Shown here: positions 8,434 to 14,442 of the stretch, one piece after another
Numbering within the stretch: the first letter of the stretch is position 1
Layout of the letters: every line of letters begins with the position of its first letter
NCBI RefSeq assembly: GCF_003334355.1
Contig: NZ_QOWP01000012.1
Direction: 5' to 3' (one strand)
From: Escherichia coli
GTDB taxonomy: Bacteria > Pseudomonadota > Gammaproteobacteria > Enterobacterales > Enterobacteriaceae
Length of the DNA stretch: 64,000 nucleotides
Notes under the pieces: generated by a model
Seen by the model: only the letters and a program-made list of their open reading frames with translations
Told to the model about the DNA's origin: nothing
Database searches by the model: none
Program-made: the position numbers and the translations under genes

Positions 8434-9447
8434 ATGAAGGTACTGGTTACCGGCGCCACCAGCGGCTTAGGTCGAAACGCGGTAGAGTTTTTATGCCAGA
8501 AAGGCATCAGCGTGCGAGCGACCGGTCGCAACGAGGCAATGGGCAAATTGCTGGAAAAAATGGGCGCAGAGTTTGTTCCGGCGGATCTGACCGAGCTGGT
8601 TTCATCACAAGCTAAAGTGATGCTCGCGGGCATTGATACGCTGTGGCACTGCTCCAGCTTTACCTCACCCTGGGGGACACAACAGGCTTTCGATCTGGCT
8701 AACGTTCGCGCCACTCGCCGCCTGGGTGAATGGGCTGTCGCCTGGGGTGTGCGTAACTTTATTCATATCTCTTCCCCCTCCCTGTACTTCGATTATCACC
8801 ACCATCGCGATATTAAAGAAGATTTTCGCCCTCACCGCTTCGCCAACGAGTTTGCCCGCAGCAAAGCAGCCAGCGAAGAAGTGATCAATATGCTTTCGCA
8901 GGCGAATCCACAAACGCGCTTTACTATTCTGCGCCCACAAAGTCTGTTCGGACCGCACGATAAAGTCTTTATTCCCCGTCTGGCGCATATGATGCACCAC
9001 TACGGCAGTATTCTGTTACCGCATGGCGGCAGTGCGCTGGTCGATATGACCTACTATGAAAATGCCGTGCACGCAATGTGGCTGGCAAGCCAGGAAGCCT
9101 GCGATAAGCTACCTTCCGGGCGTGTGTACAACATCACCAACGGCGAGCATCGCACACTGCGCAGCATCGTGCAGAAGCTGATCGACGAGTTGAATATTGA
9201 CTGTCGTATTCGTTCCGTCCCCTACCCGATGCTGGATATGATCGCCCGCAGCATGGAGCGTTTAGGCCGCAAGTCAGCAAAAGAGCCGCCGCTGACCCAC
9301 TACGGCGTCTCCAAGTTGAATTTTGACTTTACGCTGGATATTACGCGTGCGCAGGAAGAGTTAGGTTATCAGCCGGTCATCACCCTGGATGAAGGTATCG
9401 AGAAAACTGCCGCCTGGCTACGCGACCACGGAAAACTGCCGCGCTAA
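8434..9447 (+). CDS. ybjS: Uncharacterised NAD-dependent epimerase/dehydratase-family protein
   Basis: 337 aa from the ATG at 8434; VTGATSGLG Rossmann motif; called by synteny. Confidence 0.85.
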
Positions 9448-10274
9448 TCCTGCCCGTATTTCTCCAGCAATGCTTCGGCAATCGCCTGAGTTTCTGCATC
9501 CGCTTCGCCGTTATATAACGTCGGGCGGAAATGCATCTGGAATGCCATAATCACGCGCCGCTGCTCGCGCGGTGTCATATCAGGTTTAACGTCATAACCG
9601 TAGCGCGCCAAAAGCTCCAGCAATGACGCGGTATCTACCGGTGTGTGCGGCGCGCGCCCGGCAAGGTAAAAGTTAACCCGCTGCGCATCCGGCCAGGCAC
9701 CAATCCCCTGCTGCGCCAGTTGCTGCCAGGGAAATAATGGCCCCGGATCGTCTTTGCGCTGCGGTGCGATATCCGCATGTGCCACTACGTTTTCCGGCTT
9801 GATGTGATAACGGGCAATAATATCTTTCGCCAGTGGAATAAGCGCCTGAATCTGTGCCGGTTCAAACGGGGCAAAATATTTCACTCCGGCCGATTTTTGC
9901 CAGCCACGGTTTTCCAGCTCAATGCCAATAGAGGTGTCGTTAAGGCGCGTTGCCCCGCGCCAGGCGCTAATCCCCGCATGCCAGGCCAGTTCTTGTTCCG
10001 GCACCAGTTGCCAGATGCGCGGTTTACCGTTGTATCGCGGTGGTACCGCAGGGACCAGATAATGCGAGCTGACCTGCTTATCGGTCAGTGTCGCCAGCGA
10101 GCTATCAAAATCATCTGCGGTGTAGTGGATCACCAGCACTTTAATGCGCGGATACGCCGCCTGCGCCTGGCGTCGGGTATCAAGCTGATATCCCTCTTTC
10201 TCGACAATGCCTTTTTCGCCTGCACACCCTGCCAATAACAGAGCGGCAGCGACCAGCCAGAAGACTCTTCTCAT
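9444..10274 (-). CDS. amiD: N-acetylmuramoyl-L-alanine amidase AmiD, outer-membrane lipoprotein
   Basis: 276 aa; signal peptide with lipobox LLAGC; amidase_2 fold. Its stop overlaps the ybjS stop in the tetranucleotide CTAA. Confidence 0.9.
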
Positions 10275-10594
10275 CGACGCGTTTTCACCGCCGTACCGCT
10301 GACGCTAACCATCAGCATACTGCCGTTTTGCCCGACCGTTTCGTAGTCGATATCAATACCGACGACGGCATCGGCCCCCAGCGCCCGCGCCTGGGAGCCT
10401 AATTCCTCAAAGGCGATCTCCCGTGCTTTACGCAGTTCTTTTTCATACGCACCGGAACGTCCGCCAACGATATCGCGGATACCGGCAAAGAAATCACGGA
10501 AAATATTGGCACCTAAAATCGCTTCGCCGGTCACCACACCGCAATATTCAACGATGGTCTGGCCTTCCAGAGTTGGGGTTGTAGAAAATTGCAT
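10271..10594 (-). CDS. ybjQ: UPF0145-family small protein
   Basis: 107 aa; stop overlaps the amiD start (ATGA), suggesting translational coupling. Confidence 0.85.
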
Positions 10595-10719
10595 GATCGA
10601 TCTCCTTGTTTGCTAAGCCTTCGATCTCAAAAGCATTATCAGACTGATACGCTATTATTGAAAGGATATCATTATTATCGTAGAACGCTTTCAGAGCGAT
10701 CGCTTATAAGGAAATCATT

Positions 10720-11235
10720 ATGCGCTACAGCAAATTGACAATGCTTATCCCCTGCGCACTGCTCCTCAGTGCCTGCACCACAGTCACTCCAGCTTATAAA
10801 GATAACGGCACACGCAGTGGTCCTTGCGTTGAAGGAGGCCCGGATAACGTGGCCCAGCAATTTTATGACTACCGCATTTTGCACCGCAGCAACGACATCA
10901 CCGCCTTGCGCCCTTATCTGAGCGACAAACTGGCGACACTGCTTAGCGATGCCTCCCGGGATAATAACCATCGGGAACTACTGACCAACGATCCATTCTC
11001 CAGTCGAACCACCTTGCCAGACAGCGCCCACGTTGCCAGTGCATCGACTATCCCTAATCGTGATGCCCGTAACATTCCTTTGCGCGTGGATCTTAAACAG
11101 GGTGACCAGGGCTGGCAGGATGAAGTGTTAATGATTCAGGAAGGCCAGTGTTGGGTCATCGACGATGTGCGTTACTTAGGCGGTAGCGTTCATGCCACGG
11201 CGGGTACGCTCCGTCAGTCCATCGAGAATCGCTAA
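10720..11235 (+). CDS. ybjP: Putative lipoprotein YbjP
   Basis: 171 aa; signal peptide with lipobox LLSAC. Confidence 0.85.
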   Translation: MRYSKLTMLIPCALLLSACTTVTPAYKDNGTRSGPCVEGGPDNVAQQFYDYRILHRSNDITALRPYLSDKLATLLSDASRDNNHRELLTNDPFSSRTTLPDSAHVASASTIPNRDARNIPLRVDLKQGDQGWQDEVLMIQEGQCWVIDDVRYLGGSVHATAGTLRQSIENR

Positions 11236-11381
11236 CGCCTTGATCAACCAATAAACCCCGTAAATTGTCCGGCATTTCGTGAGGAATGCCGACATTTATG
11301 CTCGCCGACCACCGCCCCCGTTATTTTGTGCTATGTTTATTGAATAATGCGCTTTGCTTTTAACTTTTAAAGCAGAAATAT

Positions 11382-11395
11382 TGCATAATTATTCT
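11382..11395 (+). promoter_or_regulatory. ARG-box-like sequence TGCATAATTATTCT in the artP promoter region
   Basis: Resembles the TGAAT-N4-ATTCA core of ArgR boxes (8 of 10). artPIQM is known to be arginine-repressed. A second weaker TGAATAATGC lies at 11341-11350. Confidence 0.35.
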
Positions 11396-11452
11396 GTCAA
11401 AGGTACTATCTTCGACCTCAATAGCTATCAGACTGCCAGTATACGAGTGTCA

Positions 11453-12181
11453 ATGAGTATTCAATTAAACGGCATTAATTGCTTCTACGGCGCGCATCAG
11501 GCGCTGTTCGATATCACGCTGGATTGCCCACAGGGCGAAACGCTGGTGTTACTTGGCCCCAGCGGCGCGGGTAAAAGCTCGCTGCTGCGTGTACTCAATC
11601 TGCTTGAGATGCCGCGCTCCGGTACGCTCAACATTGCAGGCAACCATTTCGATTTCACCAAAACACCCTCTGACAAAGCGATTCGCGATTTGCGTCGTAA
11701 CGTTGGCATGGTGTTTCAGCAATACAACCTGTGGCCGCATCTGACCGTGCAGCAAAACCTGATTGAAGCGCCCTGCCGTGTACTGGGGTTGAGTAAAGAT
11801 CAGGCGCTGGCCCGTGCAGAAAAACTGCTGGAACGTCTGCGTCTCAAACCTTATAGCGATCGTTACCCGCTGCATCTTTCTGGTGGTCAGCAGCAGCGTG
11901 TTGCTATTGCCCGTGCGTTGATGATGGAACCGCAGGTACTGCTGTTCGATGAACCGACCGCCGCACTGGACCCGGAAATTACGGCACAAATCGTCAGCAT
12001 CATTCGTGAGCTGGCAGAAACGAATATTACCCAGGTGATCGTCACCCACGAAGTTGAAGTGGCGCGTAAAACCGCCAGCCGAGTGGTGTATATGGAAAAT
12101 GGTCATATCGTAGAACAAGGCGACGCGAGCTGCTTTACCGAGCCGCAAACCGAAGCATTTAAAAACTATCTCTCTCACTAA
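11453..12181 (+). CDS. artP: Arginine ABC transporter ATP-binding protein
   Basis: 242 aa from the ATG at 11453 ([13 protein letters not shown]); Walker [10 protein letters not shown] and signature LSGGQQQRV. Confidence 0.93.
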
Positions 12182-14321: not shown

Positions 14322-14344
14322 TGTGGCTGCGTACATTCGCCGGG

Positions 14345-14442
14345 GGGTTTTGTAGGTCTGATAAGACGCGCCAGCGTCGCATCAGACATCAGCACGGTGC
14401 CTGTGCCGGATGCGGCGGGGACGCCTTATCCGGCCTACATAG
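14345..14442. repeat. REP/BIME cluster (two inverted REP units) downstream of artM
   Basis: GTAGGTCTGATAAGACGCGCCAGCGTCGCATCAGAC and GCCGGATGCGGCGGGGACGCCTTATCCGGCCTAC match the enterobacterial REP consensus. Confidence 0.85.

Follow-up and report, generated by a model that had tools for sequence, protein, structure and literature searches.

The gene for a small UPF0145 protein, ybjQ, overlaps in Escherichia coli with amiD, which codes for a peptidoglycan amidase lipoprotein, and the gene for another lipoprotein, ybjP, diverges from this pair. The question raised by this locus is whether the overlap couples the expression of the two genes and, beyond this, whether a small protein acts on the amidase. 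The locus was analyzed in a stretch of 64,000 nucleotides from contig NZ_QOWP01000012.1 (assembly GCF_003334355.1), which is called the window below. We consider it likely that ybjQ and amiD form a standard operon and that the divergent neighbour ybjP is transcribed separately.

Gene content and conservation of the locus

All three open reading frames are present, together with the following features.

8434..9447, plus strand: ybjS, convergent neighbour; its stop codon overlaps the amiD stop codon at 9444-9447 (CGCTAATCC)
9444..10274, minus strand: amiD, outer-membrane lipoprotein, zinc N-acetylmuramoyl-L-alanine amidase, 276 aa (ORF, Pfam, PDB, RefSeq annotation of strain HS)
10224..10235, minus strand: codons for L-A-G-C, the lipobox of AmiD (residues 14-17, with lipidation at Cys17 and Ala at +2)
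10271..10274, minus strand: ATGA overlap; the amiD start codon (10274-10272) shares bases with the ybjQ TGA stop codon (10273-10271)
10271..10594, minus strand: ybjQ, predicted cytoplasmic UPF0145/YbjQ_1 protein, 107 aa (NF002776, PF01906, PDB 1Y2I)
10602..10607, minus strand: ybjQ Shine-Dalgarno sequence AAGGAG, 7 nt (6-7 by either count) 5' of the ATG; conserved in the alignment
10635..10640, minus strand: putative -10 element GATAAT of ybjQ-amiD, in the conserved block TTTCAAgCATAGCGTATCgGTCCGATAATG 5' of ybjQ
10652..10658, plus strand: sigma-S-type -10 element C-TATTAT of ybjP; published start site at about 10664-10665
10720..11235, plus strand: ybjP, DUF3828 outer-membrane lipoprotein, TolC partner, 171 aa (NF007824, DUF3828, PDB 9V52)

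The 1792-bp stretch from amiD to ybjP is matched with 100% identity in E. coli HS and further strains, whose annotation names the genes amiD, ybjQ, and ybjP, and with at least 94% identity in almost all E. coli. Open reading frames, annotated genomes, family profiles, and PDB matches thus agree on the gene identities given in the original prediction, and ybjP (plus strand) is indeed divergent from the minus-strand pair. Genes, order, orientation, and the 4-nt overlap are all shared with E. coli K-12 (ybjQ-amiD, b0866-b0867; ybjP, b0865), and there is no substantive difference between this unit and the present locus. The strain in the window does not belong to K-12 and has the haplotype with the short spacer; in about 21% of E. 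coli genomes, ybjP and ybjQ are separated by an insert of 2.6 kb. The same layout, in which ybjQ directly precedes amiD on one strand while ybjP diverges and ybjS converges, is seen in 40 or more Enterobacterales loci, and ybjP adjoins ybjQ-amiD in 41 of the 80 species loci surveyed. The operon table used by PMC4448311 lists amiD and ybjQ as one operon. The locus is already annotated and in all likelihood represents the standard chromosomal ybjQ-amiD two-gene operon of E. coli with its neighbour ybjP.

Since the stop codons of ybjS and amiD overlap, there is no intergenic room for a terminator. Scans for terminators and promoters returned as many matches as expected from shuffled sequence, and their sole externally supported match is the artP promoter (TTAACT-18-CATAAT). 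An Rfam scan of positions 9300-11500 returned no riboswitch or sRNA; its one match, to CRISPR-DR53 on the hairpin 3' of ybjP, is below threshold.

Expression of ybjQ-amiD and of ybjP

On the sense strand, the junction reads ...AAA ACG CGT CGA TGA / ATG AGA AGA..., with ATGA common to both codons; the overlap of the ybjQ stop with the amiD start, as originally described, can thus be read directly in the sequence at 10271-10274. Of 5426 complete E. coli genomes, 5421 match a 50-nt probe of the junction with at least 95% identity, which indicates that the overlap is real and conserved. Among the 80 species loci, 51 are informative (from Enterobacterales, with amiD adjacent to ybjQ), and 45 of these have kept an overlap, either of -4 nt (ATGA, GTGA, or TTGA; 32 loci) or of -1 nt (TGATG or TAATG; 13 loci). 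The two forms interconvert through 3-nt indels. For the orthologues, the same AmiD N-terminus and lipobox are obtained only with the overlapping ATG as start codon. The pair is uncoupled in Serratia and Yersinia, with amiD fully separated.

As a feature, the ATGA overlap is routine and not unusual. Similar overlaps occur within about 8 kb (potH/potI as ATGA, artQ/artM as TAATG), and these termination-reinitiation pairs have the same junction geometry as ybjQ-amiD. Whereas those ABC-transporter permeases are subunits of one complex, YbjQ and AmiD are not, and they go to separate compartments.

The two genes differ in their ribosome-binding sites. The Shine-Dalgarno sequence of ybjQ is strong (anti-SD duplex dG -8.5 kcal/mol; mean -8.4 in 29 orthologues) and well spaced, whereas that of amiD is weak and badly spaced (dG -6.3 at 11 nt in the window), with a mean of -3.4 in 24 overlapping orthologues and values near 0 in Erwinia. 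This is the pattern of generic reinitiation coupling, with a good Shine-Dalgarno sequence for the upstream gene and no well-spaced one for the downstream gene. Where amiD is separated, it has its own Shine-Dalgarno sequence (AGGAGG with dG -10.8 in Serratia; -6.0 in Yersinia), as seen in only five such cases. In the fold of 100 nt of junction RNA, the SD-like region is covered by a small hairpin (z = -1.48; 15 of 200 shuffles as stable). This is not significantly stable and provides no evidence for coupling by unmasking, so that structure-gated coupling at the amiD AUG was dropped.

The overlap might instead be mere genome compaction, with amiD expressed mainly through a promoter or ribosome entry site of its own inside ybjQ and the two genes effectively independent. 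ATGA overlaps are very common and do not require dependence, and the E. coli GGUGA match to the anti-SD sequence, 10-11 nt 5' of the amiD AUG, makes some direct initiation possible. However, the low orthologue mean and the Erwinia values show that this SD-like element is not conserved, a consensus scan found no sigma-70-like match inside ybjQ on the minus (coding) strand, and the overlap survives the indels which switch it between the -4 and -1 forms. We consider effective independence of the two genes unlikely.

A two-gene mRNA with translational coupling of amiD to ybjQ is plausible from sequence logic and the database operon listing. The co-translation proposed in the original prediction gains plausibility from the conserved overlap and the Shine-Dalgarno contrast; what such an overlap implies is coupled expression, not physical association. 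In the proposed scheme, a promoter in the 125-bp spacer between ybjQ and ybjP would generate a single ybjQ-amiD mRNA. Its candidate -10 element is the conserved GATAAT about 40 nt 5' of the ybjQ ATG; the surrounding block is found in 9 of 13 Enterobacteriaceae sequences and is kept in the E. coli haplotype with the 2.6-kb insert. Ribosomes would bind the mRNA at the strong Shine-Dalgarno sequence of ybjQ, and a fraction of those reaching the ybjQ UGA would re-initiate at the overlapping amiD AUG. The synthesis of AmiD would follow ybjQ translation and would probably stay at a lower level, as amiD lacks a well-placed Shine-Dalgarno sequence of its own.

The divergent gene ybjP is transcribed in the opposite direction from its own sigma-S promoter. 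Its start site has been mapped to -56 by primer extension (Lacour 2004) and to -55 by DMTSS (both tabulated in PMC2760140), and RpoS dependence of ybjP is cited in the YbjP-TolC paper. In other genera, the plus-strand -10 block of ybjP reads GCTATGCTTGAA. In Klebsiella, RamA co-induces ybjP with tolC and acrA (PMC4310594).

The three proteins and the genomic context of ybjQ

All three proteins have solved structures, and YbjQ alone is still without a function. AmiD matches the crystallized AmiD (PDB 2BH7) over residues 18-276 (E=2.1e-177; also 2WKX, 3D2Y, 3D2Z). Its catalytic domain is Amidase_2 (PF01510, E=7e-30, residues 43-179), as in AmpD and in AmpDh2 and AmpDh3 from Pseudomonas aeruginosa; the latter two are the nearest solved relatives after AmiD itself (4BPA, E=1e-54, and 4BXD). 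A weak PG_binding_1 match (E=0.017) covers residues 220-264 at the C-terminus. The lipobox LAGC with Cys17 is present, while the LPAM_1 profile matches weakly (E=0.2). The actual outer-membrane location is said to go back to the work of Uehara and Park in 2007. AmiD is exported, lipidated at Cys17, and brought to the outer membrane, where it cleaves the MurNAc-L-Ala bond in muropeptides and anhydro-muropeptides. This cleavage is established biochemistry for which no partner protein is needed: purified AmiD(18-276) with Zn completely digests peptidoglycan unaided (PMC12440217). The cytoplasmic AmpD acts specifically on anhydro-muropeptides, whereas the specificity of AmiD is broader (PMC6403190).

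YbjP scores 327 bits against NF007824 (cut-off 200), matches DUF3828 (E=6e-33), and has the lipobox LLSAC (LSAC) with Cys19. Over its full length (1-171), it matches chain P1 of PDB 9V52 (E=2.8e-115, 385 bits) and also 9QGY and 9TG4. These three entries are YbjP-TolC structures: cryo-EM and pull-downs from 2025-26 identified YbjP as the lipoprotein partner of TolC (10.1101/2025.03.19.644130, eLife 2026; 10.1101/2025.10.29.685381). The original statement that the small partners have no established role is thus outdated for YbjP and still holds for YbjQ. YbjP docks on TolC, and in the proposed scheme its gene's position next to ybjQ-amiD would reflect a shared cell-envelope gene neighbourhood rather than a role with the amidase.

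YbjQ scores 218.5 bits against NF002776 (cut-off 160), is a full-length match to the Pfam family YbjQ_1 (PF01906, E=7e-39), and matches PDB 1Y2I (E=2e-64; five chains). The family has 6911 cluster representatives at E<=1e-3. Sequence inspection revealed neither a signal peptide nor a transmembrane segment in YbjQ (top 19-aa hydropathy 1.32, polar N-terminus). The invariant or near-invariant residues of the family are Gly, Ala, Thr, Glu, Asn, Arg, Asp, and Tyr. No conserved metal ligands were found in YbjQ, which has no His and a single Cys (C18) that is replaced by Y, L, or F in relatives; the "heavy-metal-binding" label of YbjQ_1 is a structural guess without backing from conserved ligands. 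N-terminal extensions in YbjQ relatives are mostly mis-called starts; a few resemble, as judged by eye, zinc-ribbon, GYF-like, or SH3-like N-termini. As no signal peptide was found in the extended relatives, the extensions give no functional clue.

The literature mixes up YbjQ with YjbQ, the ThiE analogue. An assignment of YbjQ as thiamin phosphate synthase analogue (PMC7084401) was discarded because the cited paper concerns YjbQ and the names were confused.

The ybjQ-amiD adjacency is kept in nearly all sampled Enterobacterales, rearrangements included. In Hafnia, amiD is inverted, yet its start is only 40 bp from ybjQ. Pectobacterium, Brenneria, and Dickeya (Pectobacteriaceae) retain ybjQ-amiD and lack ybjP. 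In contrast, amiD is absent within 3 kb in 27 of the 80 YbjQ loci, including all 25 from outside Enterobacterales. These comprise YbjQ homologues with 70-82% identity from Aeromonas, Pseudomonas, and many other taxa; unlike in E. coli, no amidase adjoins ybjQ in the sampled Pseudomonas loci. Neighbours outside Enterobacterales vary (CysG, GltS, RND transporter, HIT, spermidine synthase). The four metagenomic representatives are mostly on 1-kb contigs, and on two long contigs the neighbours are unrelated (HIT, GST, and an uncharacterized 456-aa gene beside flagellar genes). No recurrent ybjQ partner was found among the 25 species loci outside Enterobacterales and the metagenomic representatives. 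Six of 11 Aeromonas loci have an S66 LD-carboxypeptidase-like gene adjacent or close to ybjQ, which hints weakly at a cell-wall-peptide theme. The encoded protein is below the LdcA cut-off (127 vs 378 bits), and an intrinsic terminator lies between ybjQ and the S66 gene in most species; both rule out this gene as operon evidence. In one Pseudomonas, an MltF-like gene converges on ybjQ.

Possible partners of AmiD

The original prediction had also proposed that the small partners modulate the amidase. Against this stand the lack of a signal peptide in YbjQ as opposed to the exported AmiD, the activity of AmiD alone, and the YbjQ homologues without amiD nearby; nothing suggests control of the amidase by small proteins. 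As YbjQ lacks a signal peptide and AmiD is periplasmic, a direct effect of YbjQ on AmiD appears topologically unlikely. Judged as a regulator or immunity pair, the two proteins neither share a compartment, by inspection of their sequences, nor consistently co-occur across taxa. The known partner-controlled peptidoglycan amidases are AmiA/B/C with their LytM activators EnvC, NlpD, and ActS, a relation like that proposed for YbjQ and AmiD. The AmiA/B/C family belongs to Amidase_3. These enzymes are auto-inhibited, whereas AmiD (Amidase_2) is active alone in vitro, and the missing export signal of YbjQ also counts against such a likeness. YbjQ would stay in the cytoplasm as a pentamer, and its tie to the amidase would be co-expression, not contact.

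The long-kept pairing in Enterobacterales could nevertheless reflect a functional link. YbjQ might be a true partner of AmiD, handling the pre-lipoprotein before export or binding re-imported murein peptides, with coupling fixing the ratio. The persistent adjacency, even after the Hafnia inversion, would fit such a role, as would the S66-like gene of Aeromonas and the MltF-like gene of one Pseudomonas. Against it stand the different compartments, the full activity of AmiD alone, the 25 loci with close YbjQ homologues, varied neighbours, and no amiD, the terminator which splits ybjQ from the S66 gene in most Aeromonas species, and the uncoupled pair in Serratia and Yersinia. We regard such a partnership as very unlikely. 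The envelope partner might rather be YbjP, either as a Tai3-like inhibitor or by positioning AmiD at TolC for local peptidoglycan trimming. Both are outer-membrane lipoproteins facing the periplasm, their genes are close neighbours in the 41 loci mentioned above, and the DUF3828 fold of Tai3, the immunity protein of the T6SS effector Tae3, is present in YbjP, encoded near an amidase gene. Yet Tae3 and AmiD presumably represent unrelated enzyme families, there is no T6SS context in the window, and AmiD is a housekeeping zinc amidase. The Pectobacteriaceae named above keep ybjQ-amiD without ybjP, and the 2.6-kb insert separates ybjP from ybjQ in about one-fifth of E. coli genomes. According to the YbjP-TolC authors, YbjP, unlike Tai3, binds TolC 3:3, is limited to some Enterobacterales, and forms a clade separate from Tai3 in their phylogeny; no convincing peptidoglycan interaction was found, and the proteome of the ybjP deletion mutant changed only slightly, AmiD not being among the proteins discussed. 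An AmiD-directed role of YbjP is exceedingly improbable.

Implications of the probable ybjQ-amiD operon

With the locus annotated and structures available for all three proteins, the operon carries little weight as a discovery. Its arrangement has a practical consequence: with the amiD start inside ybjQ and a probable dependence on ybjQ translation, ybjQ mutants need to be checked for polar loss of AmiD. YbjQ is one of the widespread small proteins still without a function. A division of labour, with AmiD freeing periplasmic murein peptides and the co-expressed YbjQ pentamer binding or buffering re-imported peptides or a related metabolite, is a highly improbable reading which, if true, would provide the first function for the large, uncharacterized UPF0145 family. 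Still more speculative is that AmiD and TolC-bound YbjP jointly open the peptidoglycan around efflux ducts. YbjP itself is no longer an orphan and is now to be read as a TolC/efflux component.

Gene identities and the ybjQ-amiD junction

The locus is best explained as an ordinary two-gene operon, ybjQ-amiD, which is already annotated, next to an independently regulated gene, ybjP, which encodes a TolC partner lipoprotein. The ORF list and the raw sequence place the three genes exactly where the original prediction had put them:

9444..10274, minus strand, amiD (276 aa)
10271..10594, minus strand, ybjQ (107 aa)
10720..11235, plus strand, ybjP (171 aa)

Over these 1792 bp the sequence is 100% identical to that of E. 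coli HS and of several further strains, whose genes RefSeq names amiD, ybjQ, ybjP, and, for the convergent neighbour, ybjS. These names are borne out by profile searches: YbjQ matches NF002776 (218.5 bits, cut-off 160) and Pfam YbjQ_1 (E=7e-39), YbjP matches NF007824 (327 bits, cut-off 200) and also DUF3828, and AmiD matches Amidase_2 (E=7e-30). Solved structures exist for AmiD (2BH7, 2WKX, 3D2Y, 3D2Z), for YbjQ (1Y2I, a Shigella entry with five chains), and for YbjP in complex with TolC (9QGY, 9TG4, 9V52/53/55). The window lacks a P2-like prophage that strain HS has between rcdA and ybjL (near window 27200; compared loci L089/L090), and the artM-artJ interval differs by ~70 bp (near window 14330-14400); the two sequences are otherwise collinear at ~99% identity.

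On the coding strand, ybjQ ends with AAA ACG CGT CGA TGA and amiD starts with ATG AGA AGA, the four bases ATGA being common to both, which confirms the predicted stop/start overlap. Of 5426 complete E. coli genomes, 5421 match a 50-nt probe centred on this junction with ≥95% identity. As a sequence feature the overlap is not special, because potH/potI (ATGA) and artQ/artM (TAATG) overlap likewise within the window.

Conservation was assessed in 80 loci that code for close relatives of YbjQ (a single genome for each species), in which amiD, ybjP, and ybjS were placed by tblastn before each junction was read; two loci end at the ybjQ terminus and are uninformative for the junction. The order of divergent ybjP, ybjQ-amiD, and convergent ybjS holds throughout the Enterobacteriaceae and Erwiniaceae of this set. 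A 4-nt overlap occurs in 32 loci (mostly ATGA, GTGA in Mixta, TTGA in two Pantoea) and a 1-nt overlap (TGATG or TAATG) in 13, the two forms being a 3-nt indel apart, with loss of the last ybjQ codon. The genes also overlap in Rahnella and Dickeya. They are separated by ~25-73 nt in Pectobacterium and Brenneria and by 200 nt in Yersinia nurmii; amiD lies 1.8 kb downstream in Serratia grimesii and is inverted in Hafnia, with its start 40 bp from ybjQ. No amiD was detected by tblastn within 3 kb of ybjQ in any of the 25 non-Enterobacterales loci (YbjQ identity 70-82%; including Aeromonas, Pseudomonas, and various metagenome-assembled genomes), nor within that distance in the Xenorhabdus and Budvicia loci.

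Translation initiation and transcription

Anti-Shine-Dalgarno (SD) duplex energies were calculated over the 21 nt preceding each start codon. The ybjQ gene has an AAGGAG at ideal spacing, the hexamer ending 7 nt from the start codon (6 nt when counted from the calculated duplex), with a dG of -8.5 kcal/mol (mean over 29 orthologues -8.4). For amiD, the window offers only GGUGA, 11 nt from the start (dG -6.3), and the 24 overlapping orthologues average -3.4, with Erwinia at ~0. Among the separated amiD genes, those of Serratia (AGGAGG, -10.8) and Yersinia (-6.0) have a good site of their own, unlike the three from Pectobacterium/Brenneria (-3.3 to -4.3); the five genes, a small sample, average -5.5. 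Such a pattern, albeit with few separated cases, would be expected if translation of amiD is normally started by ribosomes which have completed ybjQ. The co-translation that had been proposed from the overlap is thus probable as termination-reinitiation coupling, given the conservation of the overlap and the SD pattern. We do not claim that coupling is gated by RNA structure, because the hairpin over the SD-like bases does not fold significantly more stably than shuffled sequences (z = -1.48).

An operon table (PMC4448311) gives 'amiD,ybjQ' as a single unit, and a consensus scan of the coding strand found no promoter-like site within ybjQ. The mapped start site of ybjP is listed in PMC2760140 (from Lacour 2004 and DMTSS) at 55-56 nt 5' of the ATG, corresponding to ~10664-10665 in the window, and the YbjP paper cites a dependence on RpoS. 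Two promoter-like elements lie in the spacer:

10652-10658, plus strand, sigma-S-like -10 element of ybjP (C-TATTAT), directly upstream of the published start
10640-10635, minus strand, putative -10 element of ybjQ-amiD (GATAAT), on the opposite strand, 12 bp from the ybjP -10 element

In other genera, the aligned ybjP -10 block reads GCTATGCTTGAA. GATAAT, which we infer to serve ybjQ-amiD, is kept in 9 of 13 aligned sequences.

The stop codons of the convergent genes amiD and ybjS overlap at 9444-9447 (TAG and TAA within CGCTAATCC), and therefore each transcript must end inside the other gene. As no intergenic terminator lies between them, the transcript 3' ends must be antisense to each other. 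In some Citrobacter and other genera the amiD-ybjS spacer measures ~50 bp to several hundred bp. Downstream of ybjP, an imperfect hairpin at 11265-11301 (TGTCCGGCATT...AATGCCGACA, then TTTAT) is probably its terminator; it also gives a sub-threshold Rfam match to CRISPR-DR53. Further on, at 11360-11389, the promoter-like TTAACT-18-CATAAT coincides with the constitutive promoter published for artPIQM.

Within E. coli, the ybjQ-ybjP spacer (window 10650-10702; E. coli locus L002 7152-9784; also L003) varies: an AT-rich insert of 2.6 kb is present in about 1130 of the 5426 complete genomes, O157:H7 among them. It displaces the region of the mapped sigma-S promoter of ybjP but retains the 57 bp before ybjQ. 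Within the insert lies a pentapeptide-repeat ORF of 599 aa, which has a pseudogene annotation (Pentapeptide_4, E=2e-4), and the ybjP allele of the carriers is divergent as well (92% aa, 87% nt). At the same spot, Citrobacter sp. FP75 (L007) has a 2.2-kb insert with a QnrB-family quinolone-resistance pentapeptide-repeat gene (L007 1827-2471, minus strand; NF000420, 473 bits, cut-off 460). A pentapeptide-repeat gene thus occurs in this spacer, beside the TolC partner gene, in two genera.

Functions of the three proteins

AmiD is a zinc amidase which cleaves MurNAc-L-Ala and anhydro-MurNAc-L-Ala bonds (PMC6403190) and, according to Uehara and Park (2007), is anchored to the outer membrane as a lipoprotein. 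Together with zinc, purified AmiD(18-276) suffices to strip peptidoglycan completely, with no helper protein (PMC12440217). YbjP, assumed in the original prediction to lack an established role, now has one: in the MacAB-TolC and AcrABZ-TolC pumps it forms a 3:3 complex with TolC, as demonstrated by cryo-EM, pull-downs, ITC, and in vivo cross-linking, and its lipid anchor substitutes for the acylation missing from E. coli TolC (10.1101/2025.03.19.644130, 10.1101/2025.10.29.685381). The authors of the YbjP work saw no convincing interaction with peptidoglycan and did not group YbjP with Tai3, a DUF3828 immunity protein. RamA induces ybjP along with tolC and acrA in Klebsiella (PMC4310594), and inhibited lipoprotein transport induces it in E. 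coli (PMC5105897).

Sequence inspection revealed no signal peptide in YbjQ. The protein has no histidine and a single, non-conserved cysteine; the conserved residues are Gly, Ala, Thr, Glu24, Asn30, Arg46, Asp83, and Tyr84. The name 'heavy-metal-binding' is not backed, since no Cys or His is conserved. The family is very large (6911 cluster representatives). Among the 150 best representatives, P0242 is a tandem duplicate by sequence and P0248 (627 aa) has five matched stretches. Of 17 longer members inspected, at most 3-4 have N-terminal extensions resembling zinc-ribbon, GYF-like, or SH3-like domains, and most others apparently have mis-called starts. The description of YbjQ as a thiamin phosphate synthase (ThiE) analogue (PMC7084401) is a name mix-up, the cited Morett 2008 concerning YjbQ; this confusion could enter annotations.

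That the small proteins modulate the amidase, as had been suggested, is not supported: judged by sequence, YbjQ and AmiD reside in separate compartments, AmiD needs no partner in vitro, the pairing of the two genes is confined to a single order in the loci sampled, and the role of YbjP is established and different. We keep this reading as an unlikely possibility because the pair has long been conserved within Enterobacterales. Outside that order, the ybjQ neighbours vary (CysG, GltS, RND transporter, HIT, GST, spermidine synthase). Cell-wall neighbours in Aeromonas and Pseudomonas are a weak lead only. An S66 LD-carboxypeptidase/MccF-like gene adjoins ybjQ or is one gene off in 6 of 11 Aeromonas loci (L058, L061, L062, L065, L066, L071), abutting it as TGATG only in A. 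molluscorum. It was rejected as operon evidence, scoring far below the LdcA cut-off, with a clear terminator after ybjQ in most Aeromonas (in at least three of the other species with the S66 gene: L058, L061, L062). Nor was the MltF-like gene convergent with ybjQ in one Pseudomonas upheld as such. In Acinetobacter, the gene for the outer-membrane factor in the adeIJK/adeXYZ efflux operon is directly followed by two YbjQ-family genes (PMC10132057); this proximity to efflux genes, and that of ybjQ to the TolC partner gene in E. coli, is probably a coincidence.

As a practical point, mutations in ybjQ are likely to have polar effects on amiD.
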